Positions 47,051 through 64,000 are shown, counted from the stretch's first letter. The stretch is DNA of 64,000 bases from Candidatus Micrarchaeia archaeon (GCA_049964835.1 JBMFWW010000001.1:131589-195588), one strand, 5' to 3'. Notes: generated from the sequence alone by a model not told the origin. Numbers and translations: made by a program.

Positions 47051-47084
47051 TTTTGAAATCTTAAAAGATTTCAAGTTTAGGATT

Positions 47085-49915
47085 TAGTTGCGGTGCGCTC
47101 ACAGATCGCCGAAGCTTTCCGTTTACACGCCCGCTCTATCAAAGTTATGTACTATAACCTCCCTAAGTGTCTCGTTTCGGATATGGCTTCATCCTTAGAT
47201 GCTTTCAGGATTTATCCATTTAGCGCGTGGCTACCCGGCACTGCCATAATGACAACCGGTACACTAGAGGCGCCGTTGTCTCGTTCCTCTCGTACTAAAG
47301 ACGACTTATCCTCTGACACTAACACTCTCAGTAGTTGCTACCGTACTGTCTCGCGACGTACTGAACTCAGCTCATGTATCTTTTTAATGGACGAGCAGTC
47401 CAACCCTTGGCGGCTCCTGCACCGCCAGGATAAGATAAGCCCATATCGGTGTATCAAACGGCGGGGTCGATGTGAACTCTCACCCGCCACGAACCGGTTA
47501 CCTCCAGAGTAACTTTTCTGACAGCATGGTGGCCCATTAAAGGCCATCCAGAGTTCGTTAAGCCCCTGTTTCCAGTCTGCATCTCATGCTTTGCGAGATA
47601 CAGTCAGCCCTGCATTTGCCTTTATGCTTAACGGTGGGTTCCCAACCCACCTAAGCAGAGCATCGGTCACTTTCGTTTTTTTATCAAAAGCAACCGCCCA
47701 GTCTAACTATCCACCTGCAGTTGTCCCGCGCTGCGGTAAGTCATGTAAGAAATGAAGAGTGGTGTTGCATTGTTGCTCCATGTACGCCAAAACATACACT
47801 TCGACGCTCCCACTTACGCTACGCATCATCTCTCACATAACAGCAACAGGCTATAGTCAAGTTTCATGGAGACTTCGCTACCCACTGAGAGAACGTGGCA
47901 TGTACACCACGTAGTGAGTTCACCAGGTCCAAGGTTGGGACAGTGGGACAGACGTTACGCCCTTCATGCAAGTCACCTATTAAGTGACGAGGTATTACGC
48001 TACCTAAAGAGAGTCAGAGTTACTCCCGCTCTTTGCTAGGGCTTAGTCCCGTTGAAATGGGGTTTCGCTGACTAGCGGTGAGCAGGCGTCACCCACTATA
48101 CTAAGCCTTACGGCTGTGCGGTGAGTTGTGTTTTTGATAAACAGTCGCCGTCCCCTTGTTATTGCAATCTGCGTTTACTAAACGCAGACATGGCTTGTCG
48201 AAAACTTACGCCACTATTTTGCCGATTTCCCTAACCTTGGTTCTCCTGACACGCCTTGGCTTTCTTGGCCAGCAGCACCTGTACTGGTTCTAGGTACGAT
48301 CTAATACAATCGTTGCGTACTCCCTTTTCACGGGCTCAGGAATTCAGTCATATAGTTCATTTAGCTGTTTCTCCTCATAATGAGACTCCACAGCCATTTG
48401 CACTTTGTTTCAGACCTATCCCCAAGCGTCAGAAGTACACCTTGTGTTGCCACTCCTATGTATTAGGCATATGAATATTAACATATTTCCCTTTTGCACA
48501 CGAGTAATTAGCTGTGTGCTTAGGATCGGCTAACTCCCAGCTGACGATCATTGCAAGGAAAACCTTGTGCTTCCGGCGTAATGGATTTTCACCATTATAT
48601 GCTATTACTAACACCAGGATTTTCACTGCTATGTGATCCACCTGATCTTATGATCAAGCTTCTAATCCCATAGCACGCCCCCCTACACATCTTTCGATGC
48701 CCAGGTCTCGGTACTTAGTTTAGCCCCGTATATCTTCAGATAACAAAACCTCAATCGGTACGCTATGACGCGTTTTTTAAAGGATGGCTGCTTCTGAGCC
48801 TACCTCCCGACTGTCTAAGATTATGTCGTCTTTAGTTACACTTAACTAAGATTTAGGGACCTTAACCAAGGTCACTGTCGTTCCAGTCTCGTCCGTCTAG
48901 CTTACCCAAACGAACCGACTCCTGAGGTCTACGCAGCACATATATTCGGAGTTTGAGAAGAAGGTGGAACCTTTCGATCCCGAAACTTCTAATCGGTAGC
49001 TCTACCCTATGTGCGAGCTCGCTCAAGGCTATACTAAATATACTTCGGAGGGGACCCGCTATTGCCATGTTCGAGTGGTCTATCGCCCCTACCCGCAGCT
49101 CACCCAGCCAGATATACTAGGATTGGTTGCGGACCTCCATCGGCTGTAAAGCCGACTTCGTCCTGGCCGCGCGTAGATCACAATGGCTTCGGGTCGTAAA
49201 GATGTGACTTAGATATTTTCATATCCTGCGCCTCATTGCTTGCGCGCACTCGCTTTCACTTCGCCTTTCGGCTTGCCACACCCATACACTCCCTGGCTCT
49301 TGCTTCGAGAAGAAAGACAGAACATTGATCCACATACTTTGCTGTATGCTTTCGCATCTTCGCTTCGCATGCCTCATTTCTTTCACGCCCTATCTTCTCG
49401 TAACCACCTAGTTTCAGATCATTTCACTCCCACACGTGTGGGTGCTTTTCAGCTTTCGCTCGCGCTACTTGTTCGCTATCGGTCTCTAGTCAATATTTAG
49501 GGTTGGGGTTTAATGCCCCCGTCTTCACTCGACATACCAAAGCCGAGTTACTCATACACGACACAACTGATTTAATTTCGATTACGAGGCTGTCACTCTC
49601 TATGGCCATTCTTTCCAAAATGTTCACCTCACTAAACCAGTTTAAAAGTCGCACCACATCTCCTTACATTTGCATATAAGGATTCAGTTTGCCCTACGCC
49701 GTTTTCATTCGTATTACTTACGGCATCGCTTTTGCTTTCTTCTCCTGCGGGTACTAAGTTCTTTCAGTTCCCCGCGTATGCATGCACCACTATTCATAGT
49801 GCAATCGGCTATCCCAGGTTCAACGTTCGACATGCAACTACCCTGGGCTTTTCGCAGCTTGCCACGGCCTTTGACGCTACTAGAGCCAAGCCATCCCCTA
49901 GGTGGCTTAAAATTA
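47085..49915 (-). rRNA. rrl: 23S ribosomal RNA (ends approximate, +/-20 nt)
   Basis: The reverse complement contains the sarcin-ricin loop AGTACGAGAGGAAC (plus strand GTTCCTCTCGTACT near 47285), CTGAAAGCATCTAAG near the 3' end, and TAAGCCACCTAGGGGATGGCTTGGC at the 5' end. It is a GC-rich block with only short spurious ORFs. Confidence 0.9.
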
Positions 49916-49920
49916 TAATT

Positions 49921-49935
49921 TTCAAGCTTGCTTCT
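49921..49935 (-). other. 5' strand of the pre-23S processing stem
   Basis: Complementary to 47036-47050 (15 bp perfect, extendable with mismatches). Confidence 0.6.
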
Positions 49936-54152: not shown

Positions 54153-54162
54153 AGTGTTTATA

Positions 54163-54567
54163 ATGAGAGGAGTATCATCAAAAATCATGAAAACCTTAAT
54201 ACCTGGAAGCGTTCTTGCATGCGCAGATAACAGCGGTGCTTATGAATTTAGAATAATACACATAATAGGTAAAGGAGGTGGAGGCAGACACGGAAAGCTT
54301 GCTTCTGCAGGGATAGGAGATATAGTTTCTGCAAGTGTAAGAAAAGGAACACCTACATACTTAAAAAAACCAGTTCGTGTGGTAATAGTGAGGCAAAAAG
54401 CTCCACTAAGGAGATCAAATGGTTTACATATAAGATTTGAAGATAATGCAGGAGTAATGGTAAGTGAAGACAACATGCCAATAGGAACTGAAATAAAAGG
54501 AGCAATAGCGAGAGAGGTCGCAGAGAGATTTACAAATATAAAGGGCGTAGCCTCAAGAATAGTGTGA
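54163..54567 (+). CDS. rpl14: 50S ribosomal protein L14
   Basis: ADNSGA....I......G....A.IGD.V...V..G pattern. ATG at 54163, within the listed ORF. Confidence 0.9.
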   Translation: MRGVSSKIMKTLIPGSVLACADNSGAYEFRIIHIIGKGGGGRHGKLASAGIGDIVSASVRKGTPTYLKKPVRVVIVRQKAPLRRSNGLHIRFEDNAGVMVSEDNMPIGTEIKGAIAREVAERFTNIKGVASRIV

Positions 54568-54571
54568 AATT

Positions 54572-54934
54572 ATGAAGAGCAGTAAACCAAGAAAACAAAG
54601 ATTATACCGGTATACAGCACCTGCACACATACGTCAAGCTTTTGTGCATGTAAGAATTTCAAAGGATCTTTCAAAAAAGCTAGGTATTAAAAAAAGGAGC
54701 ACGCAGATTAAAAAGGGAGATACTGTAAAGATAATGGCCGGTTCAAATAAAGGAAAAACCGGAAAGGTTAATATTGTAAACACAAAAAGAGGCATAATAT
54801 ATCTAGAAAATATAACAAGAAGAAATGCAAAGGGAAAGGAATTGCAAATACCAATCAAAAGTTCCAATGTATACATAACAGATTTGGAATTGAATGATAA
54901 ACTTAGAAAACAAAAACTAGGTTTGAAAGAATAA
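54572..54934 (+). CDS. rpl24: 50S ribosomal protein L24
   Basis: SSKPRKQR N-terminus and the KOW motif IKKGDTVKIMAGSNKGKTGKV. Confidence 0.9.
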   Translation: MKSSKPRKQRLYRYTAPAHIRQAFVHVRISKDLSKKLGIKKRSTQIKKGDTVKIMAGSNKGKTGKVNIVNTKRGIIYLENITRRNAKGKELQIPIKSSNVYITDLELNDKLRKQKLGLKE

Positions 54935-54947
54935 ACATGTGATATAA

Positions 54948-55628
54948 ATGGGAGTAAAGGCAAACAGAAGACATATAAAAAGACTTGCTTCGAGCAAGTA
55001 TATGGGAATAAGCAAGAAAAGCTCTTCTTATGTAGCTAAGCCTCTTCCAGGAAGGCATACAAAAGAGTCTAGCATAGCATTAAAGACTATACTTACTGAG
55101 AAATTAAAGTTACTTTCTTCTTCAAGAGAAGCAGAAAACGTAATAAAAGAAAAGAACATAACGGTAAATCATAAAATAATAACAAAACCTCTTTATCCAG
55201 TGGGCTTTGGAGATATAATACACATAGAAAAATTAAATGAGTCATTTTTAGTTGGCAGAGATAAGAATGGCAAGATAACTCTTGAAAAGCATAAAGAAGG
55301 TAAGCAATTATTCAAAATAACTGGAAAGTACATTGCAAAAGGCAAAAAACAGATGTTAAGACTTCATGATGGTTCAATAATAAATCCTGAAAACATAAAG
55401 GATGCAAATGTAAATGATTCTGTAGATATCAAAGATGGTAAAATATCATCTATAATAAAACTTGAGGAAGGCGGCAAATGTCTTGTAATAAAAGGCACTC
55501 ACGCATCTGAAACAGGAATAATTAGAAAAATAATTAAGGGAACGGAGACAAGATCCTCTTTAGTATCAGTGTCTTCAGGAAAGGAGAACTTCGAGACTAC
55601 ACTCGAAAATATAATGGCAATAAATTGA
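54948..55628 (+). CDS. rps4e: 30S ribosomal protein S4e
   Basis: HIKRLASSKYMGISKK...YVAKP.PGRH pattern, in operon position. Confidence 0.9.
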   Translation: MGVKANRRHIKRLASSKYMGISKKSSSYVAKPLPGRHTKESSIALKTILTEKLKLLSSSREAENVIKEKNITVNHKIITKPLYPVGFGDIIHIEKLNESFLVGRDKNGKITLEKHKEGKQLFKITGKYIAKGKKQMLRLHDGSIINPENIKDANVNDSVDIKDGKISSIIKLEEGGKCLVIKGTHASETGIIRKIIKGTETRSSLVSVSSGKENFETTLENIMAIN

Positions 55629-55636
55629 TGATCTAA

Positions 55637-56155
55637 ATGGCAGATAATCCAATGAAAAATATATATCTTGAAAAGGTAGTAATAAACATAGGTATAGGTC
55701 TTAATGAGAATATGGTTGAGAATGCAAAAGCATTAATCAAAAAATTAACTGATCATAATTCTGGAATAACGGTATCAAAAAGAAGAAATCCTGAATTAAA
55801 GCTTAAAAAAGGTCAACATATAGGTGTTGTCTCTACAATAAGGGGCAAAGAAGCATCAGAGTTTCTAAAAAGAGCTCTCGATGCAAATAACAATTTAGTA
55901 AGTAAAAATGCAATAGCTAACAACTCTCTTAACTTTGGTGTTAAGGAGTACATATACTTTGCAGGAGTAAAGTATGATCCTAAGGTAGGAATACTCGGAA
56001 TGAATGTAAACGCATCATTTGCAAGAAAAGGCGCAAGAGTAGCGAAAAGAAAAAGAAAGACATCAAAGCCAAGTATAAAGCATGGAAAGATAACAAAGGA
56101 AGAGATATTAAAATATTTAAGTGATACTTTAAAATTAAAAATACAGGAATCATGA
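55637..56155 (+). CDS. rpl5: 50S ribosomal protein L5
   Basis: NPMKNIYLEKVVINIGIG pattern, in operon position. Confidence 0.9.
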   Translation: MADNPMKNIYLEKVVINIGIGLNENMVENAKALIKKLTDHNSGITVSKRRNPELKLKKGQHIGVVSTIRGKEASEFLKRALDANNNLVSKNAIANNSLNFGVKEYIYFAGVKYDPKVGILGMNVNASFARKGARVAKRKRKTSKPSIKHGKITKEEILKYLSDTLKLKIQES

Positions 56156-56165
56156 GTATGGTTGA

Positions 56166-56321
56166 ATGAAGATTAATTTCGAACAAAAATTCAAAGGCAA
56201 AGGCGTAAGAAGATGTAGATTCTGCGGAAACGCTAGAGGAATAATTAGAAGTTACAATCTACGTGTATGTAGAAGATGTTTCAGGGAGTCGGGACGAAAG
56301 CTTGGCTTTGAAAAGTATTAG
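56166..56321 (+). CDS. rps14: 30S ribosomal protein S14 (zinc type)
   Basis: My own translation: MKINFEQKFKGKGVRRCRFCGNARGIIRSYNLRVCRRCFRESGRKLGFEKY. CxxC...CxxC, positioned between L5 and S8. Confidence 0.85.
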   Translation: MKINFEQKFKGKGVRRCRFCGNARGIIRSYNLRVCRRCFRESGRKLGFEKY

Positions 56322-56329
56322 TGAGTATT

Positions 56330-56710
56330 ATGGATGTTCTTGCAGACACATTAAATAAAATAAAGGTTTCAGAAAATACAGGTAGTTATGAATGTTTAGT
56401 ACCTTCAACTAAACTTATACGTGCAGTATTGAAAACAATAAAAGACAATAATTATATAGACGATTATGAGATAATTAAAGAAGGAAAATTTGAAATGATA
56501 AAAATAAAGTTATCAAAAAAGATTAATGATATAGGCGTAATAAAGCCTAGGCATGCAGTATCTACAAAGGAGTACCAAATATATGAAAAGAGATACATTC
56601 CAAGCAAAGATTTTGGAATACTAATAATGTCAACACCACAAGGTGTCATGACAAACAAAGACGCAAAGCAAAAAAATACGGGCGGTAGATTATTAGCATA
56701 TTTATATTAA
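56330..56710 (+). CDS. rps8: 30S ribosomal protein S8
   Basis: MDVLADTLNKIK N-terminus and GG.LLAY at the C-terminus. I prefer the ATG at 56330 over the listed GTG at 56321. Confidence 0.9.
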   Translation: MDVLADTLNKIKVSENTGSYECLVPSTKLIRAVLKTIKDNNYIDDYEIIKEGKFEMIKIKLSKKINDIGVIKPRHAVSTKEYQIYEKRYIPSKDFGILIMSTPQGVMTNKDAKQKNTGGRLLAYLY

Positions 56711-56729
56711 GATTAATGATGTTGATTTA

Positions 56730-57254
56730 ATGCAAGAGATTGATATACAAAATGGAGTAACAGTTTCAATAGATAAAAATAAGGTTACCATTAAGGGTAA
56801 ACTTGGTTCTTGCACAAAAACATTTAACGAAAGACTTTTTTCAATAAATCATGAAGGACAAAAACTAAAGTTAATTACAACAAATAATAAAAAACTTTTG
56901 AAAAAGGCCGCATTGGCAGAACAAGCGTTTGGATCAGAACTAAAGAACTCAATTAAAGGAGTGCAAGAAGGTCTAGAAACAAAAATGACAATTTTATATG
57001 CACACTTTCCAATGTCTTTAGATATAAAAGGAAAGACGGTTTTTGTAAAGAACATATTTGGGGAGAGATTTCCAAGAGAAACTACGATAGTTGGTGATAC
57101 AAAAATAGAGGTAAAAGGCCAATCCGTAGTAGTAAAAGGAGTTGATGCTTACGATGTTGGTCAGACAGTTGCAAATCTTAGAAAGATATGTTATGCTAGA
57201 GGAAATGATACAAGAGTGTTCCAAGATGGTATCTATAAAATACTTGAAGAATGA
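56730..57254 (+). CDS. rpl6: 50S ribosomal protein L6
   Basis: Two-domain L6 pattern (V.I....V.IKG.LG; YAHFP), in operon position. Confidence 0.9.
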   Translation: MQEIDIQNGVTVSIDKNKVTIKGKLGSCTKTFNERLFSINHEGQKLKLITTNNKKLLKKAALAEQAFGSELKNSIKGVQEGLETKMTILYAHFPMSLDIKGKTVFVKNIFGERFPRETTIVGDTKIEVKGQSVVVKGVDAYDVGQTVANLRKICYARGNDTRVFQDGIYKILEE

Positions 57255-57266
57255 TTGTGATTATGT

Positions 57267-57623
57267 ATGAACATTAAAAAGAAATCAAAATTTGTAGTTC
57301 CAAACTATGGCGCAAAGAGCAGAAAAGGTGTTAAGAATAGATGGCGCCATCAAAGAGGCATAGACAACAAAAAAAGAATAATGAGAAGCGGATATGGAGC
57401 TATACCAAAAATAGGCTATAAAAACGATGCAATAAAGAGAAATCTTGATAAAAACGGATTACAAAAAGTTATAGTAAGCAATCATAATGAGCTAAAAGAA
57501 GCAATGCAGATACCAAACGTTTCAATAGTTTTGCATCATGCTCTTTCAAAAAGGAAAAAATTAGAGATACAAAAACAGGCAGAAAGTTCTGGTCTTAAGA
57601 TATCAAATAGGGTGAAACAATGA
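57267..57623 (+). CDS. rpl32e: 50S ribosomal protein L32e
   Basis: RWRHQRGIDNKKR....GYGA.P.IGY pattern. Confidence 0.85.
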   Translation: MNIKKKSKFVVPNYGAKSRKGVKNRWRHQRGIDNKKRIMRSGYGAIPKIGYKNDAIKRNLDKNGLQKVIVSNHNELKEAMQIPNVSIVLHHALSKRKKLEIQKQAESSGLKISNRVKQ

Positions 57624-58114
57624 CGATAAAATTTGCAAAAAGAGTAGCTTCAGAGATCCTCAAAAGAGGAGGAAGTTCAATAAGGATAAATCCTTCAAGT
57701 ATAGATGATGCTAAAAAAGCAATGACCAGAGAGGATGTAAGAGCTCTAGTTAAAACTGGAGGCATATACGCAATAAAGCAAAAAGAAAATAAAAGTATTA
57801 ATTCAAAGTTGCTTAAAATCAGAAGAAGTAAAGGAAGAGGAAGAGGTCAAGGTAAAAGAAAAGGTACCCTAAAGGCAAGAAATGGAGAAAAATGGCTAAA
57901 GAAAGTAAGGTCACAAAGATTCCTTTTACTTCAATTAAAGAATATGGGTAAGTTAGACAATGCGTTATATAACAAATATTACATGCTTATAAAAGGCAAT
58001 AGCTTTTCTGACAAAGGTTCACTTCTTCTTCATTTAAGAGAAAGAGGTATAAATATTACAGAAGAGGAGTCAAAAGTAATAAAAGAGCAGATGTCTGCAA
58101 GATACAAAAAATAG
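57620..58114 (+). CDS. rpl19e: 50S ribosomal protein L19e
   Basis: KRVASEILKRGGSSIRINP N-terminus and an RGRGQGKRKG stretch. ATGA overlap with L32e. Confidence 0.9.
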   Translation: MTIKFAKRVASEILKRGGSSIRINPSSIDDAKKAMTREDVRALVKTGGIYAIKQKENKSINSKLLKIRRSKGRGRGQGKRKGTLKARNGEKWLKKVRSQRFLLLQLKNMGKLDNALYNKYYMLIKGNSFSDKGSLLLHLRERGINITEEESKVIKEQMSARYKK

Positions 58115-58122
58115 TTGAGTTT

Positions 58123-58689
58123 ATGGCAAAAATAGTCAAAGTAACATTTAAAAGAAAAAGAAATAAGCTTACAAATTATAAAAAGAGGCTGGCGCTAGTA
58201 AAGAGCAATTTAAATAGAATTGTAATAAGAAGTACGAATAAAAGAGTACTCGCTCAAATAGTAAAATACTCAGAAAAAGGAGATATAGTTTTAGTATCTG
58301 CTTATTCAAATGAGCTTTCTAAGTTCGGATGGCCATCAAGAAGCAATAAGCCTACAGCATATCTTACTGGCTTGCTTCTTGCTCAGAAAGCATCAGAAAA
58401 GAAACTTGAGGGAGAAGAGTACATACTTGATATAGGTCTTTCAGTTCCTGTTAAAAATTCAACACCATTTGTATTTATGCAGGGTTGTATAGACGGCGGT
58501 TTAAAGCTTCGTTCAGGTAGCAAAATAGAAGAAAAGAATTACAAATTCCAAGATTCGTATATAAACAAATTAAAGGAAAATAAAGCCCTTTATGAAAAAC
58601 AGTTTAGTGGCTATATAAAACAAAAAATATCGCCTGAAGAGTTAAATAAATTATTTAATTCTGTAAAAGAAAAAATGTTAAACGCGTGA
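58123..58689 (+). CDS. rpl18: 50S ribosomal protein L18
   Basis: FKRKRNKLTNYKKRL..VKS...R.V.R.TNK pattern. Confidence 0.9.
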   Translation: MAKIVKVTFKRKRNKLTNYKKRLALVKSNLNRIVIRSTNKRVLAQIVKYSEKGDIVLVSAYSNELSKFGWPSRSNKPTAYLTGLLLAQKASEKKLEGEEYILDIGLSVPVKNSTPFVFMQGCIDGGLKLRSGSKIEEKNYKFQDSYINKLKENKALYEKQFSGYIKQKISPEELNKLFNSVKEKMLNA

Positions 58690-58693
58690 TTAT

Positions 58694-59341
58694 TTGGAAG
58701 AAAAAAGATTTGAGACAGTTTCAGAGTTTGCATGGTCACCAAAGACAAAGTTAGGTGTACTTGTGAGCGAAGGTAAAATTACAAATATAGACGAAATATT
58801 TGCTACTGGCAAACCTATAAAAGAGGTAGGCATAGTAGACAAGCTTATTCCAAATATAGAAGATAAGGTACTTGAAATAGCATCTGTGCAACGTATGACT
58901 AAAAACAACAGAAGGCAAAAGTTCAGGGTTACCGTTGTTGTTGGAGATAGGGCCGGACATGTTGGTGTAGGCGTTGGAAAGGATGTAGAAGTAAGGCCAG
59001 CAATAGATACTGCAATAAGAAATGCAAAAAAGAATATTGTTTCAATAAAATTAGGTTGTGGTTCATGGGAATGCAACTGTGGAACTCCGCACACACTTCC
59101 ACTTACAATAAGGGCAAAGGTCGGAAGTTCAGAAGTTATACTAAAACCAGCTCCAAGAGGAGTAGGTATTGTAGCTGCAAAAACAATGAAAACTGTAATT
59201 GAACTTGCAGGAGTAAAAGATGTATGGACTTATTCTCGTGGAAGAACAAGAGACAAGTATAACGTTGCAGTAGCTACTCAAAAAGCACTAAAGAAAATAA
59301 GTGAAATTAGAAATTCATATGTAGTAAAGGTACTACAATAA
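58694..59341 (+). CDS. rps5: 30S ribosomal protein S5
   Basis: VQRMTKNNRRQKFRVTVVVGDRAGHVGVGVGK and GVGIVAA patterns. TTG start. Confidence 0.9.
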   Translation: MEEKRFETVSEFAWSPKTKLGVLVSEGKITNIDEIFATGKPIKEVGIVDKLIPNIEDKVLEIASVQRMTKNNRRQKFRVTVVVGDRAGHVGVGVGKDVEVRPAIDTAIRNAKKNIVSIKLGCGSWECNCGTPHTLPLTIRAKVGSSEVILKPAPRGVGIVAAKTMKTVIELAGVKDVWTYSRGRTRDKYNVAVATQKALKKISEIRNSYVVKVLQ

Positions 59342-59409: not shown

Positions 59410-59480
59410 GCCTTGATGGTGTAGCGGCAGCATAAGGGACTGTGGATCCCTAGGTCCGGGTTCGACACCCGGTCAAGGCC
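59410..59480 (+). tRNA. tRNA-His (GUG)
   Basis: Manual cloverleaf: acceptor GCCTTGA/TCAAGGC, U8, anticodon arm AGGGA-CTGTGGA-TCCCT, T arm CCGGG-TTCGACA-CCCGG, discriminator C. The base at -1 is A, not G. Confidence 0.85.
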
Positions 59481-59546
59481 ATACCTAAATAAAATCTACT
59501 ATGTTATTTATATTTATATCTTGTTTATGTATTCTTATTGGTATAA

Positions 59547-60653
59547 ATGTTCATAGCTGTGTTTTCAGTAGGTGCAATAGATGCACTAGTGCCTGTATTA
59601 ATAATAATTGTTTTCATAGCGGCAGCAGGTGGCATAAGTAGAGGATTTAGTCTCTTCAATTTATTTGGTATTGGTACACTTATAAAAACAGGTCCATCTG
59701 GAAAAGGTTCACTATCCCAAAAAACAATGAAAAAAAGCTATTTACATTACGGCCAGAAACCACTATCAATTAAAAAAACAGAGATTAAAACAGATGAAAA
59801 TAAAAAGAATTATAGACTTAAAAAGGACTTCGAAAAGAACTTTTCTAATAACAGAGGCAAAGCGGCTCAAATAAATGTTGCTTCAAATCCAAAAAATGCA
59901 GCTATTATTGAAAATGAAGGCAAAGGCGCTGAGAATAAAAATAAAGGAAAATCTATTCTTCCATTTGCAGGAAAAACCTTACTTAATCTAACATCGCCTC
60001 TTCTAAAAGGGTCAATTCTTGCGGGGGGTGGATTTATAAATATGGTAGCTAAAAAACGTGATTACCATAAAAAAAATATATTTTACAAATACGAAACCAA
60101 AACCCTAAAAAGTGGCAAGGAAAACTTCTCATCCTACAATAATGACAGTGAGAATACATTAATACAAGAAGGTTTAGCTTCTACTATTGCTATTAGGAAA
60201 AAAATATTAGAAGACAGAAGACGCATTGCTCGCGATAAAAAACTATCAGATGCAAAAAAGAAATTTATGATTGCAAATTCAAATGCTGCAAACAGATTCT
60301 TTTTAGAGAGAGAAAATGAGTTTAGAACTGCACAAAAAGCAGTAGATAAGATGCGAGAGGAGTATGTACAAAAGTCAGCGAGAATACAAAGCATAGCAGA
60401 TAGCAAAGAAAGGGAAGCGGCTCAAAAAGAGTTAGATGAAAGTACCTTTGCCAATTTCTCAAAAACTTATAATAAATTATTCGATACAAGAAAGGATTAC
60501 GCTGCCAAGGAATTATCATCTAAATTATTTGAGAAAGGCAAAGTTTACGGTAATTATAAATACAAATTGAATCTATTTGGAAAAGGTGAAGATAAAGAAG
60601 GGGAAAGTGGATATTCTATAATAGAGTTCAATTTAGATCGCGAAGAAAAATAA
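59547..60653 (+). CDS. N-terminally anchored Lys-rich coiled-coil protein
   Basis: 368 aa. One N-terminal TM helix (ALVPVLIIIVFIAAAGG), then a charged, heptad-like region (KKILEDRRRIARDKKLSDAKKKF...REEYVQKSARIQ...). Confidence 0.55.
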   Translation: MFIAVFSVGAIDALVPVLIIIVFIAAAGGISRGFSLFNLFGIGTLIKTGPSGKGSLSQKTMKKSYLHYGQKPLSIKKTEIKTDENKKNYRLKKDFEKNFSNNRGKAAQINVASNPKNAAIIENEGKGAENKNKGKSILPFAGKTLLNLTSPLLKGSILAGGGFINMVAKKRDYHKKNIFYKYETKTLKSGKENFSSYNNDSENTLIQEGLASTIAIRKKILEDRRRIARDKKLSDAKKKFMIANSNAANRFFLERENEFRTAQKAVDKMREEYVQKSARIQSIADSKEREAAQKELDESTFANFSKTYNKLFDTRKDYAAKELSSKLFEKGKVYGNYKYKLNLFGKGEDKEGESGYSIIEFNLDREEK

Positions 60654-60668
60654 TTTATACTTTAAAAT

Positions 60669-61946
60669 GTGATAGCACATATGCAAAAAGAACGCATGAT
60701 AAGATTTTCAATTATTTTGGTAGCTTTGCTTTTAAGTTTGGATTATGCCTCTCCGTTATTATGTAGTTCTACCGTTTTGAGTTCTAATACTTATTCTGAG
60801 ATAGCTAATTTTTCAAGTTATTCAACAGGAGTTGCACTTTATATCTCTGCATTTGCACTTCTTGCATCACTTTTTTTTATATCAATTGTATATATAATAA
60901 ACAAGATATTTCCGTATGAGCGTTTAAACTCATTTATTAATAGCGAATACAAAGAAATAGTAAAAACATTTTTGATAATAATCATAATATACGCGGCTCT
61001 TTCTTTTGCTAGTGGACTTGCAGTTTCACTTACTGGTCAATCTGTAAGCAATGGTTTTTCTACAAACTTAGGGAATTTATTATATAACGCTGAAATTTAT
61101 CTCTGTAATACAAATAATATTTTAACTAACGGGGCAGAAAATCTGATAAGTGTTGCTCTTGCCGATGGTTTATTTAAAGGTTTAGTTATAAACTGGGGTG
61201 GTTTACCATTGCCTCCAGTTCCTTTGCCGCCTCCTGCAGGAGACTTACTGCCTGTTGTAAAATCAGGCGTTCAGTTTAATTTGCTTACAAATAATATATT
61301 CCAAACTGATTTTGTTTCTGGTACACAGTTTGTAACTTCAGTAATGAATGATATTTTAAATAATGTTTACTTTCCAGCAGTAACTCTAATAACCGTACAA
61401 ATAACTGTACTGCCTTTATTTGAAATAATAGGGTTATGGATACTAATACCTCTGGGATTAATACTTCGTGCATTACCATTTGTAAGAGAAATAGGTGGTA
61501 CCTTACTGGCCTTTGGTATAGGAATAGCTTTAGTGTGGCCTTCAATGTTGGTTCTATTCAATGTTCCTGTATCTAACTTTTTCTACGGATACTTCTCAAC
61601 AAATAACTTAACACCTACAACATCCTGCTCAAGCTTAGGTTTAATATCAGTAGTTTGCAACGCAATTAATTCATTTGGTTATTATGTTCCTGAAGCTGCG
61701 CTTAGCTCTGTAGCTTATGGTTCATTTACAAATCAAATAAACTCATTTTCAATAGCATTTTCTACATTATCTTCAATATATCCTGGGCTTAATTATATAC
61801 TTCAAAATTCATTATATCTAATAATTCAAGTATTCATTTTACTTATCTTTGATTTGGTCATAGCATTTACAATAACGGATAACATAGCGCATATTTTGGG
61901 CGGAAGCATAAGGCTTTCGGTTACAAATAAATTGAAGTTGATATGA
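60669..61946 (+). CDS. polytopic membrane protein, paralogue 1 of a tandem family
   Basis: 425 aa. Signal-like N-terminus, a TM pair around a K/E loop, a large loop with PLPPVPLPPPAG, a conserved LILRALPFVREIGGTLLAFGIGIALVWP block, and a C-terminal TM. GTG at 60669, ATG at 60681. Confidence 0.6.
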   Translation: MIAHMQKERMIRFSIILVALLLSLDYASPLLCSSTVLSSNTYSEIANFSSYSTGVALYISAFALLASLFFISIVYIINKIFPYERLNSFINSEYKEIVKTFLIIIIIYAALSFASGLAVSLTGQSVSNGFSTNLGNLLYNAEIYLCNTNNILTNGAENLISVALADGLFKGLVINWGGLPLPPVPLPPPAGDLLPVVKSGVQFNLLTNNIFQTDFVSGTQFVTSVMNDILNNVYFPAVTLITVQITVLPLFEIIGLWILIPLGLILRALPFVREIGGTLLAFGIGIALVWPSMLVLFNVPVSNFFYGYFSTNNLTPTTSCSSLGLISVVCNAINSFGYYVPEAALSSVAYGSFTNQINSFSIAFSTLSSIYPGLNYILQNSLYLIIQVFILLIFDLVIAFTITDNIAHILGGSIRLSVTNKLKLI

Positions 61947-63220
61947 TGTTTACATTTATTTCGTTATTTACTGCAACCGCTACAACAACCACATGCAATC
62001 TAGGCAATATCAATGCTAATAATTGGATATTCATAAATGCTATGGTAATACTTGCTATGTTTTCTATCGGAGCGTTAATATATGCTATAAGCAATCTAAT
62101 GCCCGCAAAATCAGCTCAGAAATTAAAAGGCGAAGTAATCTATGAATTAAGTGAGGGAATAATAAGTTTATTGATATTTTTATCATTGATATCTTTAGTA
62201 TATGCTTCTTGTTCCGTAGGTTCTGCGATTTCAGGCCAGGCAAACTACCAGAATTTATTTCAAGCAGATGAATACTATGTGGGCAATCTTCTTTTTGTAA
62301 AAGGTCCTGCTTTAATAGCAGAGTTAAGTTTTCAAGGCATAATGGTTTCCATAGATGGAAATATCGTAACATTTCTTATAAATCAAGTTACCGACTCGCT
62401 TAATACTGCTCTAGGAAATAAAGGCAGTCTTTTTAGCACAGGTAGTCCAGCCTCTTCAAGTTCTTCAGGAGCATCAACTTCCGGATCTGGAGCGGCACAA
62501 ATAAGTACTGGATCTAGTATCTCACCTAATGTAGGATTCGGAGTTCAATTAACGAGTTCAGCTGATGTTGATGGTTTATTTGATACTTATGCGGGTACAT
62601 ATGCAACATATGGTGTCATAATATTAGTAACATTTGGACTTCTTTTTATACTATACTTTTTATTTCCAATAGTAAGCATACTTTCATTTGCATTGGTCGT
62701 TCCAGTAGCTTTGATATTACGTTCATTTGCTTTCTTAGGTCCAAGCATAAGAGGCATAGCGAATACGCTACTGGCACTAGCCATAGCATTTTACATAGTA
62801 TTTCCTCTAACTGTAAGTATGAATAGTTATATCATAAACTGGATGTACTGCACTAACGGTGTAACAGTATGTAATCCATATATAGCCTATACTGGCAATT
62901 ACAAAATAGCCAAAGTCCCTATAAGTTATCTATTAAAGCAAAACTCTGTTAACTTTTTGAATTATGGTGGCTTTTCATTAAGCCTTCCAGTAGACTTTTA
63001 TGGTATATTGACTACTACATCTGGAGGAGTAGGAGCTGCTGTAACTAATCTTTTTGAAGGAATAGTTAATACTCCAGTGCAGCTTGAAAACTTTTCAGGT
63101 CTAGTTGCTGAGTACTTTTTTGAAGGTGTCCTGTTAGTTGCAATTGATTTGATGATAACTCTTGCATTTGCACAAGGTTTAAACAAAGCTTTAAATCAAA
63201 TACCTTCGTTAATTAAATAG
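61943..63220 (+). CDS. polytopic membrane protein, paralogue 2
   Basis: 425 aa with the same architecture. The LILRSFAFLGPSIRGIANTLLALAIAFYIVFP block aligns with paralogue 1. ATGA overlap with the preceding stop. Confidence 0.6.
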   Translation: MMFTFISLFTATATTTTCNLGNINANNWIFINAMVILAMFSIGALIYAISNLMPAKSAQKLKGEVIYELSEGIISLLIFLSLISLVYASCSVGSAISGQANYQNLFQADEYYVGNLLFVKGPALIAELSFQGIMVSIDGNIVTFLINQVTDSLNTALGNKGSLFSTGSPASSSSSGASTSGSGAAQISTGSSISPNVGFGVQLTSSADVDGLFDTYAGTYATYGVIILVTFGLLFILYFLFPIVSILSFALVVPVALILRSFAFLGPSIRGIANTLLALAIAFYIVFPLTVSMNSYIINWMYCTNGVTVCNPYIAYTGNYKIAKVPISYLLKQNSVNFLNYGGFSLSLPVDFYGILTTTSGGVGAAVTNLFEGIVNTPVQLENFSGLVAEYFFEGVLLVAIDLMITLAFAQGLNKALNQIPSLIK

Positions 63221-63227
63221 TGTTAAT

Positions 63228-64000
63228 ATGAAAAGTAAAAGTATTAAAAATAAAGTTTTATTCATTTTACTTTCATTAGTTACACTATTTTATATATTTA
63301 ATTCAGTTGCAGCAGCAACTACTAAATATAATTTAGAAACACCGGCTTCACAGTTCTCTTTCTGGTTTCCTGTTATAATAGTAGCGGTATTTGTAAGTTT
63401 TGGTGTTGTTTTACTTTATTACATTCTTGGTTATGTTCTTAATAATAAAAGCATAATAAAAGGCGCAAAATCAGAGATAGAGCGTGTACTAAGCACAGTT
63501 GTAATACTTGTTATGGTAATAATACTTTTGAACTATTTCGGTCAAGCAACAAACGCTACCTCATCAATATCAAAAAGCTCTATTCAAACAATATGTCAGC
63601 AGCTAAACAATCCAAATACTGACAACTCTCTTGCATTTGTAAGTTCTGCAGAGTCTGTAAACTCGCCAACCTATAATATCTGTTCTGGAATAATACAAGG
63701 TGCAGGCGGTAGTGATATCACGTCAAATATAGATTATGGACTAGCTTCTGTTTATATTATAATTTCAAATTTAACAAATCAGGCAGCTAACAATCTTAAT
63801 GCAATTTACGTATACAGAACATACACCGGTTTTCTTTCAAATTTCAAAGCTACTGATGGTTTGTGTTATCCAGAAAATGCTTGTTTGCTTGGTACTTCTG
63901 TAACAACACTAAATGTTATATACTCATATTCTCCATTTGCAGGATATAATCCATTAGTTACAAAATCTACAGAGTTTGTATCAAATCAATCTACCTTAAT
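63228..64000 (+). CDS. membrane protein, paralogue 3 (3' end outside window)
   Basis: My own translation is open from ATG 63228 to the window end: MKSKSIKNKVLFILLSLVTLFYIFNSVAAA...VLLYYILGYVLNNKSIIKGAKSEIERVLSTVVILVMVIILL... It has the same signal, TM, K/E loop and TM layout as paralogues 1 and 2. Confidence 0.55.
   Translation, partial: MKSKSIKNKVLFILLSLVTLFYIFNSVAAATTKYNLETPASQFSFWFPVIIVAVFVSFGVVLLYYILGYVLNNKSIIKGAKSEIERVLSTVVILVMVIILLNYFGQATNATSSISKSSIQTICQQLNNPNTDNSLAFVSSAESVNSPTYNICSGIIQGAGGSDITSNIDYGLASVYIIISNLTNQAANNLNAIYVYRTYTGFLSNFKATDGLCYPENACLLGTSVTTLNVIYSYSPFAGYNPLVTKSTEFVSNQSTL

Follow-up and report, generated by a model that had tools for sequence, protein, structure and literature searches.

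A conserved gene cluster in Micrarchaeota resembling a reduced type IV secretion apparatus

Genes at the locus and in relatives

The stretch of DNA considered here – 64,000 nucleotides (nt) from Candidatus Micrarchaeia archaeon, referred to in full as the window – ends inside a run of co-directional genes that starts near its 3′ end, immediately beyond a tRNA-His gene. Gene 1 encodes a membrane-anchored protein with a long basic tail, and genes 2, 3 and 4 encode polytopic membrane proteins, the last of them cut by the window edge. Beyond gene 4 the cluster is known from relatives, whose loci we number L001, L005, L087 and so on: there it comprises 13-14 genes, among them six tandem membrane proteins (g2-g7), two proteins of ~275 amino acids (aa) that are paralogues of each other (g8 and g9), an ATPase (g10) and a set of further genes (g11-g14). 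We read this cluster as a chromosomal, reduced derivative of a type IV secretion system (T4SS) that falls into one broad class with Ced and Ted of archaea. It is likely, in our view, that the cluster encodes a transfer machine descended from a T4SS and that genes 2-4 supply membrane subunits of it.

A reading of the window made earlier from its sequence alone (the sequence-only reading) had described tight packing of the four genes, and coordinates, gaps and ATGA overlap are all confirmed in the sequence (Table 1). Read directly, the overlap between genes 2 and 3 occupies 61943-61946 and the gap between genes 3 and 4 measures 7 nt (63221-63227); genes 1 and 2 are 15 nt apart, or 27 nt if gene 2 begins at its ATG. 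The same reading had given genes 2 and 3 exactly 425 aa each. This holds for gene 3, and for gene 2 if translation starts at the GTG; NCBI record ACP5M9_01070 has gene 2 at 421 aa, which fits the ATG start. NCBI ACP5M9_01075 (Candidatus Micrarchaeia archaeon) matches gene 3 at 100% identity, and a few homologues of gene 3 are known from Micrarchaeota; the L001 orthologue of gene 4 is 480 aa long. The operon promoter probably lies in the AT-rich stretch that precedes gene 1, with a TATA-like ATTTATATTTATAT ~30-40 nt 5′ of the ATG. Database names of the cluster genes are all "hypothetical protein".

Sequence comparison bears out the paralogy of genes 2 and 3 and the truncated gene 4. Evidence came firstly from BLASTP, which aligns gene 2 with gene 3 (E = 2e-5) on the membrane block quoted in the sequence-only reading; pairwise BLASTP left the truncated gene 4 unlinked to genes 2 and 3. 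Profiles of the families found in relatives join all three: that of g7 matches gene 2 (1e-19), the gene 4 fragment (5e-16) and gene 3 (5e-7), that of g2 matches gene 2 (E = 1e-149) and the gene 4 fragment (6.5e-10), and that of g5 matches the same two (1e-26 and 2e-11, respectively). The six membrane proteins of L001 (g2-g7, of 415, 416, 480, 412, 370 and 362 aa) form one network in all-against-all BLASTP, profiles from 86 loci cross-match all six families, and HHalign connects the six orthologue families in 15 of 15 pairs (97-99.7% probability over 205-324 columns; 98.6-99.7% for the g2 family against the other five). Shared architecture and tandem paralogy, as claimed earlier for genes 2-4, are thereby borne out; the count of three is not, there being six such genes in relatives and the window ending inside the third.

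Identity to the L001 orthologue is 69% for gene 2, 68% for gene 3 and 68% for gene 4 (over 256 aa, E = 1e-123). Since each paralogue keeps its own position in relatives, the six-fold duplication appears older than the divergence of the sampled lineages. The family numbers 929 representatives at 50% clustering in an exhaustive profile search; a profile search of the protein database with the paralogue alignment returned the same 12 proteins and nothing further, and a metagenome scan with gene 3 as query gave no match. Common to the paralogues is the core G..LI.R(A/S)F...R..GG..IA..I....I.P, in which Arg, Gly and Pro are invariant or nearly so. In gene 3 the residues P254, R260 and P288 are invariant.

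The distribution of the cluster was followed through its ATPase. A scan of one genome per GTDB species located it in 236 species-representative genomes (236 loci); details come from the best 80, where identity is 64% or higher throughout and the label Micrarchaeota is nearly universal; cultured Ca. Micrarchaeum A_DKE (NZ_CP060530.1, ~801-822 kb) is one of them and a Mancarchaeum another. In loci annotated with profiles the order g2 to g14 is identical wherever the contig is long enough; g3 to g10 are complete and collinear in 52 of the 80 loci, the remainder being cut by contig ends or split, and the cluster is split in a few genomes. In L001, S5 and tRNA-His are followed by g1, the six membrane proteins and the pair of ~275-aa proteins, then by an ATPase with the DUF87 domain and more genes. 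Conservation among sampled Micrarchaeota is wide, collinear and apparently single-copy. Across lineages in which membrane and surface parts are 27-67% identical, the ATPase retains 65-86%: the motor is conserved and the exposed parts evolve fast. A VirB4/HerA-type ATPase, which the sequence-only reading proposed seeking downstream, is present in every relative with enough contig. That reading had also held that universal conservation with no ATPase or integrase context would speak against it; the cluster is indeed conserved, yet the ATPase is there.

A critical issue is whether these genes belong to the chromosome or arrived as an integrated conjugative or other mobile element, with tRNA-His as the integration site, as the sequence-only reading had entertained. 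A tRNA gene lies 66 nt before the operon, whose parts resemble conjugation proteins, and both facts fit an integrated element. Against this, the junction of S5, tRNA-His and gene 1 is conserved in L001 and L087, in relatives whose gene 3 identity falls to 43%, and the downstream neighbours on the other strand – genes for topoisomerase VI subunit B and a KH protein – are found both in the window's clade and in A_DKE. The tRNA-His 3′ end has no further copy (the partial repeat expected of an att site) in the window, nor in relatives to ~5 kb past g14, and GC content shows no shift (0.31-0.35 in the cluster, 0.30-0.34 in the flanking ribosomal genes). Integrase, relaxase and coupling protein (VirD4) are absent among the cluster genes scanned (Pfam for the window, L001 and L075; NCBIfam for L001 and L075), which argues that the cluster is not a self-transmissible element. 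No viral contig in IMG/VR carries the ATPase, set against its presence in 236 species representatives. Comparison with relatives indicates that the junction is inherited vertically and that the cluster is not a mobile element: an integrated element or virus is largely refuted, and we regard it as very improbable.

The ribosomal-protein operon upstream of the tRNA gene (L6 / L32e / L19e / L18 / S5) ends at S5, and tRNA-His and the cluster come next, likewise in L001 and L087. In archaea the genes usually found next after S5 are those for L30, L15 and SecY.

Table 1. Features of the window and of the loci of relatives mentioned in the text
Feature	Locus	Coordinates	Strand	Basis	Remarks
tRNA-His (GTG)	window	59410..59480	+	ARAGORN; Rfam 57.7 bits	upstream boundary; conserved neighbour, not a machine component
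AT-rich intergenic stretch	window	59481..59546	+	read from sequence	probable promoter region
Gene 1, 368 aa	window	59547..60653	+	open reading frame call
Gene 2, 425 aa from GTG (421 aa from ATG at 60681)	window	60669..61946	+	open reading frame call	family g2
Gene 3, 425 aa	window	61943..63220	+	open reading frame call	family g3
Gene 4, first 257 codons	window	63228..64000	+	translation	family g4; cut by window edge
Ribosomal-protein operon	window	54154-59341			ends at S5
23S rRNA gene	window	47065-49922	-	Rfam 2275 bits	complete, archaeal
g11	L001	18566-18874
Three tandem TrbC/VirB2-like pilin genes	L005	6412-7782
Carbamoyltransferase and PMT_2-type glycosyltransferase	L005	816-4270	-		divergent, just upstream of pilin genes
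Carbamoyltransferase and PMT_2-type glycosyltransferase	L089	3841-7436	-		divergent, just upstream of pilin gene(s)
Gene 1-type anchor protein	L050	6947-8161			between g7 and g8
Gene 1-type anchor protein	L062	6141-8255			between g7 and g8
Gene 1-type anchor proteins	L063, L067, L068, L070-L072				between g7 and g8

ATPase, VirB4-like proteins, pilins and membrane paralogues

The nature of the machine is most readily approached through g10, a very conserved protein of ~500 aa whose alignment shows the Walker A motif GITGAGKS and the Walker B motif LVVLDEAW. Its Pfam matches are DUF87/HerA-central (5e-14), AAA_10 (1e-11) and the TraG P-loop (3e-8). In NCBIfam it matches CedD (2e-18 to 2.5e-20), the VirB4-like CD1110 model (1e-17), CedB (3e-16) and VirB4_plasma, the VirB4 of mycoplasma integrative and conjugative elements (5e-16), followed at lower level by HerA (2e-14, with HerA models to 5e-10) and by TraC and VirB4_CagE (~1e-10). 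Among PDB sequences the VirB4 C-terminal domain of T. pseudethanolicus (4ag5) aligns to residues 58-327 (2e-7) and HerA chains match the Walker-B half. A TrwB/VirD4 match in g10 is marginal, at the level of the P-loop. A comparison with plasmids brought up 439 records, 240 of them predicted conjugative, with TraC or VirB4 annotated under most of the matches listed. From these comparisons g10 lies in the VirB4/Ced/HerA neighbourhood, as an orthologue of no named family. The distance from the Ced proteins is plain in the scores, which are 66.6-72.7 bits against CedD (cut-off 600) and 59-62 bits against CedB (cut-off 700): the 60-73 bits of g10 are roughly a tenth of what the equivalog cut-offs (600-700) demand, which makes it a relative of CedB and CedD and not a Ced orthologue.

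Two other types of machine were considered on the strength of the ATPase and set aside. A type IV pilus or archaellum does not agree with an ATPase of HerA/VirB4 rather than PilB/FlaI type; the N-termini of pilins and paralogues, on inspection only, carry Sec-like signal peptides with a downstream Cys and not prepilin motifs. For a system like the type VII secretion system, the match to FtsK/SpoIIIE covers the P-loop only (E = 0.0065).

Next to the ATPase gene stand g8 and g9, whose products have two N-terminal transmembrane (TM) helices followed by an alpha/beta soluble domain. For an AlphaFold2 model of a g8 orthologue (predicted local distance difference test, pLDDT, 75) the six best PDB matches found by Foldseek are all TrwK/VirB4 of R388, with E from 6.7e-3 to 0.1, a probability of 0.96-1.00 (1.00 for the best, at E = 6.7e-3) and 170-174 aligned columns. 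In the VirB4_plasma model, 894 positions long, residues 6-260 of g9 cover positions 24-276 (E = 2e-4) and g10 covers positions 512-808. Against VirB4 or CedB models generally the sequence signal is thin, 2 of 42 g8/g9 sequences reaching E <= 0.01. The soluble part of g8/g9 resembles a VirB4 N-terminal domain, and from the TrwK matches of g8 together with the collinear alignments of g9 and g10 to VirB4_plasma we read g8/g9 and g10 as a VirB3-VirB4 unit divided among three genes. CedB and CedD of Sulfolobales each possess part of a VirB4-like N-terminal domain (PMC11868833).

A third component type is found in some of the relatives. In two distant lineages (L005 and L089), between one and three TrbC/VirB2-like pilin genes stand at the head of the operon, encoding 134-179 aa with a signal peptide and a two-helix hairpin; in L013 a pilin gene lies 3′ of g12. 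After each pilin gene comes one for a conserved polytopic protein of 243 aa. The pilins of L005 and L089 match Pfam TrbC/VirB2 at 3.5e-6 (27.6 bits), 1.4e-5 and 2.9e-5, within a range of 24.6-27.6 bits, and the L089 and L013 pilins match T4SS_pilin at ~1e-3, the sole match for that of L013. Profiles of the pilins, of g8/g9 and of g13 found no match among PDB sequences. In L005 the three pilin genes are in tandem and their mature parts are nearly identical, the third having a Gly-rich, Cys-containing C-terminal extension.

As for the paralogues themselves, an AlphaFold2 model of gene 3 based on a 111-sequence alignment (pLDDT 84.7; predicted template modelling score 0.79) is all-helical. A Sec-type signal peptide and a nearly invariant Cys are followed by TM1, a short positive cytoplasmic loop and TM2, which runs into an exposed helical domain and a disordered Ser/Gly-rich loop (residues 161-208) – the large low-complexity exposed loop that the sequence-only reading had picked out. 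Then come a long TM3, a cytoplasmic loop with a conserved Arg...Arg pattern, TM4, an exposed Cys-containing segment, TM5 and a positive cytoplasmic tail. Five TM helices are predicted, with the N-terminus outside, the C-terminus inside and the large exposed loop joining TM2 to TM3; the loop charges obey the positive-inside rule. The most conserved paralogue motif, Arg-x(6-9)-Arg / Gly / Pro, falls in the cytoplasmic TM3-TM4 loop, whereas the exposed domains are acidic and fast-evolving. VirB6 of A. tumefaciens is likewise N-out / 5-TM / C-in, with a large central periplasmic loop; between VirB6/TrbL-type proteins and the paralogues the agreement is in topology only. CedE, too, has five TM helices (PMC11868833).

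The N-terminal hairpin of the paralogues also recalls the pilins. Residues 31-114 of the relatives' pilins align by phmmer to residues 6-87 of gene 3, HHalign pairs the pilins with the g3 family at 89% probability (E = 2e-6), and pilins and paralogues have the same Cys after the signal peptide. A pilin-like N-terminus on a channel protein has been described for CedA relative to CedA1 and for VirB6 relative to VirB2 (PMC9905601). When 94 members of the five families other than g3 were scanned against NCBIfam, the CedA model was the only recurrent match (2 of 94, best E = 5.3e-6).

Some relatives have far longer paralogues (975 aa for g4 of L048, 623 aa for g2 of L045, 645 aa for g5 of L041), and single members in other lineages match PKD, SprB-repeat or "CPR pilus PamR" adhesin-type models; both are consistent with domain insertions in the exposed loop.

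The proposed machine and its alternatives

Taking these components together, context supports well the view that the paralogues work like, and sit where, a VirB6/CedA subunit would. Genes 2-4 are probably CedA/VirB6-like membrane subunits; for homology itself the support from sequence is weak. The earlier guess of VirB6/TrbL- or CedA-type channel subunits therefore stands in part, favoured by the ATPase, the VirB4-N-terminal-domain-like proteins, the pilins and the 2 of 94 CedA matches, with no significant match to VirB6 itself.

If the cluster does encode a T4SS-derived machine, a hexamer of the ATPase would be tethered to the membrane by g8/g9, together forming a split VirB3-VirB4, and would dock, via the conserved cytoplasmic Arg loop, under the six CedA/VirB6-like paralogues acting jointly as a platform. 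That platform would pull pilin subunits out of the membrane, start a pilus of conjugative type or a short tube, and serve as the channel, and the variable exposed domains of the paralogues would touch the partner cell. By analogy to Ced/Ted and the T4SS of Patescibacteria, the machine would carry material between the Micrarchaeon and its host on contact, the likeliest form of this being the uptake of DNA or other macromolecules. The sequence-only suggestion of a role in cell-cell contact is plausible; that DNA is the main cargo is a tentative proposal, to which we give rather less than even weight.

A number of results weigh against this reading, and several of them concern the paralogues. The four window proteins matched no Pfam or NCBIfam model, TrbL/VirB6 and CedA included, in keeping with the sequence-only statement that no known family could be assigned. 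Pfam TrbL/VirB6 also failed to match any of 111 g3-family members or 94 members of the other families, and the g3-family profile matched no PDB sequence. The gene 3 model has no significant PDB neighbour in Foldseek: TrwI/VirB6 (7o3v_F) ranks 16th with E = 5.9. Its top match, TTYH2 (E = 0.048), was rejected, as the resemblance is only the general look of five TM helices plus an exposed helical bundle and not homology. The CedA match is restricted to 2 of 94 relatives, with none for window genes 2-4 at E <= 1. The members and the region responsible were not located, nine g2 members concatenated, and the 85 remaining N-terminal hairpins concatenated, giving no match; the match lies either in the TM3-TM5 core or was suppressed by the concatenation. 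Similarity of the hairpin to the pilins is significant for g3 only, HHalign giving less than 15% for the five other families.

These results invite the view that the machine is the same and the paralogues are pilin-derived structural proteins – a pilus base, a tip or a host-recognising adhesin set – instead of VirB6/CedA-related channel subunits. Want of a significant VirB6 match by sequence or fold fits such an origin, as do the pilin-like N-terminal hairpin with its post-signal-peptide Cys, the acidic, fast-evolving exposed domains and the PKD, SprB or PamR-like insertions of some members. We nevertheless think it unlikely. The most conserved motif sits in the cytoplasmic TM3-TM4 loop, which suits contact with the ATPase better than a purely external role, and two members do match the CedA model. 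Moreover, the N-terminus of CedA and VirB6 is itself pilin-like (PMC9905601), so that both readings could hold together.

The remaining adverse points concern the other components and the scope of the data. Scores of g10 lie far below all curated cut-offs, with HerA about as good as VirB4. The g8 Foldseek E-values exceed 0.001, and the part of TrwK aligned is left unspecified by the tool. The pilin scores against Pfam TrbC fall just under the gathering score of 27.9, and pilin genes are found neither in the 64-kb window nor, in the closest relatives, within ~5 kb downstream of the cluster. Continuation of the cluster past gene 4 in this genome rests on synteny with relatives. Finally, while gene content and order, paralogy, distribution, the family neighbourhood of the ATPase, the pilin and VirB4-N-terminal-domain similarities and the predicted topology are observed or computed, the assembly, the substrate and the direction of transfer are what we infer from them, function being read here from genes and models alone.

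Such low scores raise the possibility of a lineage-specific membrane machine with a HerA-type ATPase, serving defence, DNA repair or a novel kind of export and unrelated to T4SS, whose T4SS similarities would be generic to FtsK/HerA ATPases and TM hairpins. HerA models and structures score as well as those of VirB4, every match is far below its curated cut-off, and the membrane proteins are without significant known relatives. Yet three independent component types agree – the TrbC pilin, the VirB4-N-terminal-domain-like g8/g9 and the collinear match to the VirB4 C-terminal domain. A HerA-NurA repair or defence system finds no echo in the locus: Pfam shows no NurA, nuclease, effector domain or defence-type partner among the cluster genes and their neighbours, and the partners are all membrane proteins. 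The wide, collinear and apparently single-copy conservation is also unlike that of defence islands. We judge a HerA machine of this kind improbable, somewhat more so than a pilin-derived origin of the paralogues.

A T4SS-derived machine could take a more specific form. The fixed number of six paralogues matches a hexameric ATPase, which suggests that the six may form, in order, a pseudo-sixfold hetero-hexameric ring on that ATPase and, with g14, an envelope-spanning port for exchange of cytoplasmic material with the host. This is an idea we think unlikely as it stands. ARM-1 belongs to the Micrarchaeota. Cryo-electron tomography of this cultured DPANN archaeon shows tubes and docking structures, of unknown molecular identity, between it and its host, and in particular a 21-nm barrel-like docking platform, composition unidentified, where host-derived nanotubes enter the cell (PMC11329633). 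The barrel is a candidate structure for the proposed port. If the proposal were true, conjugation parts would have given rise to a dedicated inter-species conduit, an archaeal counterpart of the Patescibacteria T4SS.

Comparison with known systems bears on how new the cluster is. Ced of Sulfolobales (CedA/CedE, CedA1, CedB/CedD) and Ted of Thermoproteales import DNA (PMC9905601, PMC11868833). Like the cluster, Ced is chromosomal and archaeal and is without relaxase, coupling protein or outer-membrane complex (PMC9905601, PMC11868833). Both have an ATPase of the VirB4/HerA clade – CedD being the best and CedB the third-best NCBIfam match of g10 – and both have duplicated components bearing a VirB4-like N-terminal domain, CedB and CedD there, g8 and g9 here. 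Both, too, combine polytopic proteins of ~5 TM helices and pilin-like N-terminus with a two-helix VirB2-like pilin. The cluster differs in having the VirB4-N-terminal-domain-like modules as separate proteins beside a single ATPase, six ordered CedA-like paralogues where Ced has one or two, and the extra genes g11-g14. The organisms differ also, Ced belonging to free-living Crenarchaea and the cluster, known here from its genes alone, to host-dependent nano-archaea. Ted (TedA, TedB, TedC) shares the minimal set of VirB6-like, VirB4-like and VirB2-like proteins, and its pilin has a cleavable Sec-type signal peptide, as predicted for the pilins and paralogues of Micrarchaeota; its loci, unlike those studied here, often include ParA, HerA and Rad50 genes, and its VirB6-like protein is single (PMC9905601).

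Among bacteria, the closest parallel is with the T4SS of Patescibacteria (candidate phyla radiation), derived from the mating-pair formation type MPF-FATA, which is likewise relaxase-free, chromosomal and found radiation-wide in ultra-small, host-dependent cells (PMC12102498). It comprises VirB4, VirB3, VirB6 and VirB2-like pilins and was reported essential for epibiotic growth in one cultured strain (PMC12102498). In contrast to the cluster it is bacterial and is found by standard T4SS profiles, its VirB4 is unsplit and it has no six-fold paralogue array. The inner-membrane complex of the bacterial T4SS of R388 (TrwM/VirB3, TrwK/VirB4, TrwI/VirB6 and VirB2; PDB 7o41, 7o3v, 8rtd) offers matches in three places, g8 with TrwK, g10 with the VirB4 C-terminal domain and the pilin with TrbC/VirB2, while the paralogues show no significant match to TrwI/VirB6. 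Unlike bacterial T4SS the cluster holds no counterparts of VirB5, 7, 8, 9, 10 and 11, VirD4 or relaxase, and its VirB4 is in three genes. Lastly, the SPEARE proteins of Nanohaloarchaeota, with an adjacent VirB4/TraG-like ATPase, come from a DPANN lineage for whose VirB4-like ATPases a part in host interaction has been proposed (PMC10266531); there, however, the ATPase domain is fused to giant surface proteins with immunoglobulin repeats, and neither a six-paralogue array nor a pilin is reported (PMC10266531).

We found no description of the cluster in a literature search that left subscription journals outside its reach, so that an earlier account is possible. In the Mia14 genome paper the systems listed are type IV pili and Sec/Tat and no others, and neither that paper nor the one on A_DKE mentions the cluster. 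We regard the machine as T4SS/Ced-like and of a known kind; what is new is the VirB4 split over three genes and the six ordered membrane paralogues. Both features, the latter as an array of fixed number, are unusual among the T4SS-like systems compared, and both bear on the assembly and evolution of such machines.

How DPANN archaea with minimal genomes are supplied by their hosts with lipids, nucleotides and other building blocks is an open question. The cluster is a concrete candidate for the host link: it is widely conserved in sampled Micrarchaeota, is present in cultured A_DKE, pairs a conserved motor with fast-evolving exposed parts and has conjugation-type parts without those needed for self-transfer. 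The parallel with the chromosomal T4SS of Patescibacteria suggests, by analogy, that the bacterial and the archaeal radiations of ultra-small symbionts may each have kept a reduced conjugation machine.

Accessory genes and neighbours

Gene 1 has a single hydrophobic segment at its N-terminus (residues 1-38) followed by a basic tail, with an isoelectric point of 9.8. The sequence-only reading had it as a protein with one N-terminal TM segment and a long Lys/Glu-rich tail: the segment and the length of the tail stand, and the Lys/Glu-rich character applies to the C-terminal half only, Lys and Arg making up 21-22% throughout and Asp and Glu 18% only in residues 181-368. Its N-terminal membrane anchor of ~60 aa (..GAIDALVPVLIII..SRGFSLFNLFG..) is conserved. 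Orthologues of 41% identity occupy the same place in L001-L004 and a homologue is present in L087; full-length orthologues are confined to the window's clade, with C-terminal parts, cut by the locus start, in L007-L010, and the gene is absent from the loci of most lineages examined, A_DKE included. We take gene 1 to be a clade-specific accessory subunit, anchored in the membrane with a long basic cytoplasmic tail, and not a universal component; that it binds nucleic acid is speculation. The anchor recurs (domain E ~1e-26) in another clade of Micrarchaeota, on very basic, low-complexity proteins of 400-811 aa encoded between g7 and g8 (Table 1).

Of the genes beyond the ATPase, g11 (~100 aa) repeats, as a separate protein, the C-terminal ~60 residues of the ATPase, and its profile matches many ATPases at E 1e-5 to 1e-11. 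The g12 product is a Zn-ribbon membrane protein of ~130-150 aa, and that of g13 a coiled-coil protein of ~242 aa with weak winged-helix matches and a probable winged-helix end. The largest, g14 (~790 aa), is a bitopic surface protein: an anchor at the N-terminus leads into an extensive exposed region, after which come another TM segment and a conserved C-terminal region. Its only matches among PDB sequences, two TIM-barrel proteins designed by artificial intelligence (E ~5e-4 over ~40 residues), we take as chance.

Upstream of the pilin genes of L005 and L089 lie divergent genes for a carbamoyltransferase and a PMT_2-type glycosyltransferase, a neighbourhood that raises a possible link to pilin or surface glycosylation. 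Elsewhere in the window there is a complete 23S rRNA gene (Table 1); no 16S or 5S was detected in the 64 kb, and the rRNA genes appear unlinked. Seven contigs (L015, L020, L080, L027, L078, L079 and L086) bear the labels Saccharimonadales bacterium, "bacterium", Methanothrix or Marsarchaeota; their ATPase is 65-75% identical to that of Micrarchaeota, they hold the cluster genes for which they have room, and they are probably mis-binned or mislabelled contigs of Micrarchaeota.

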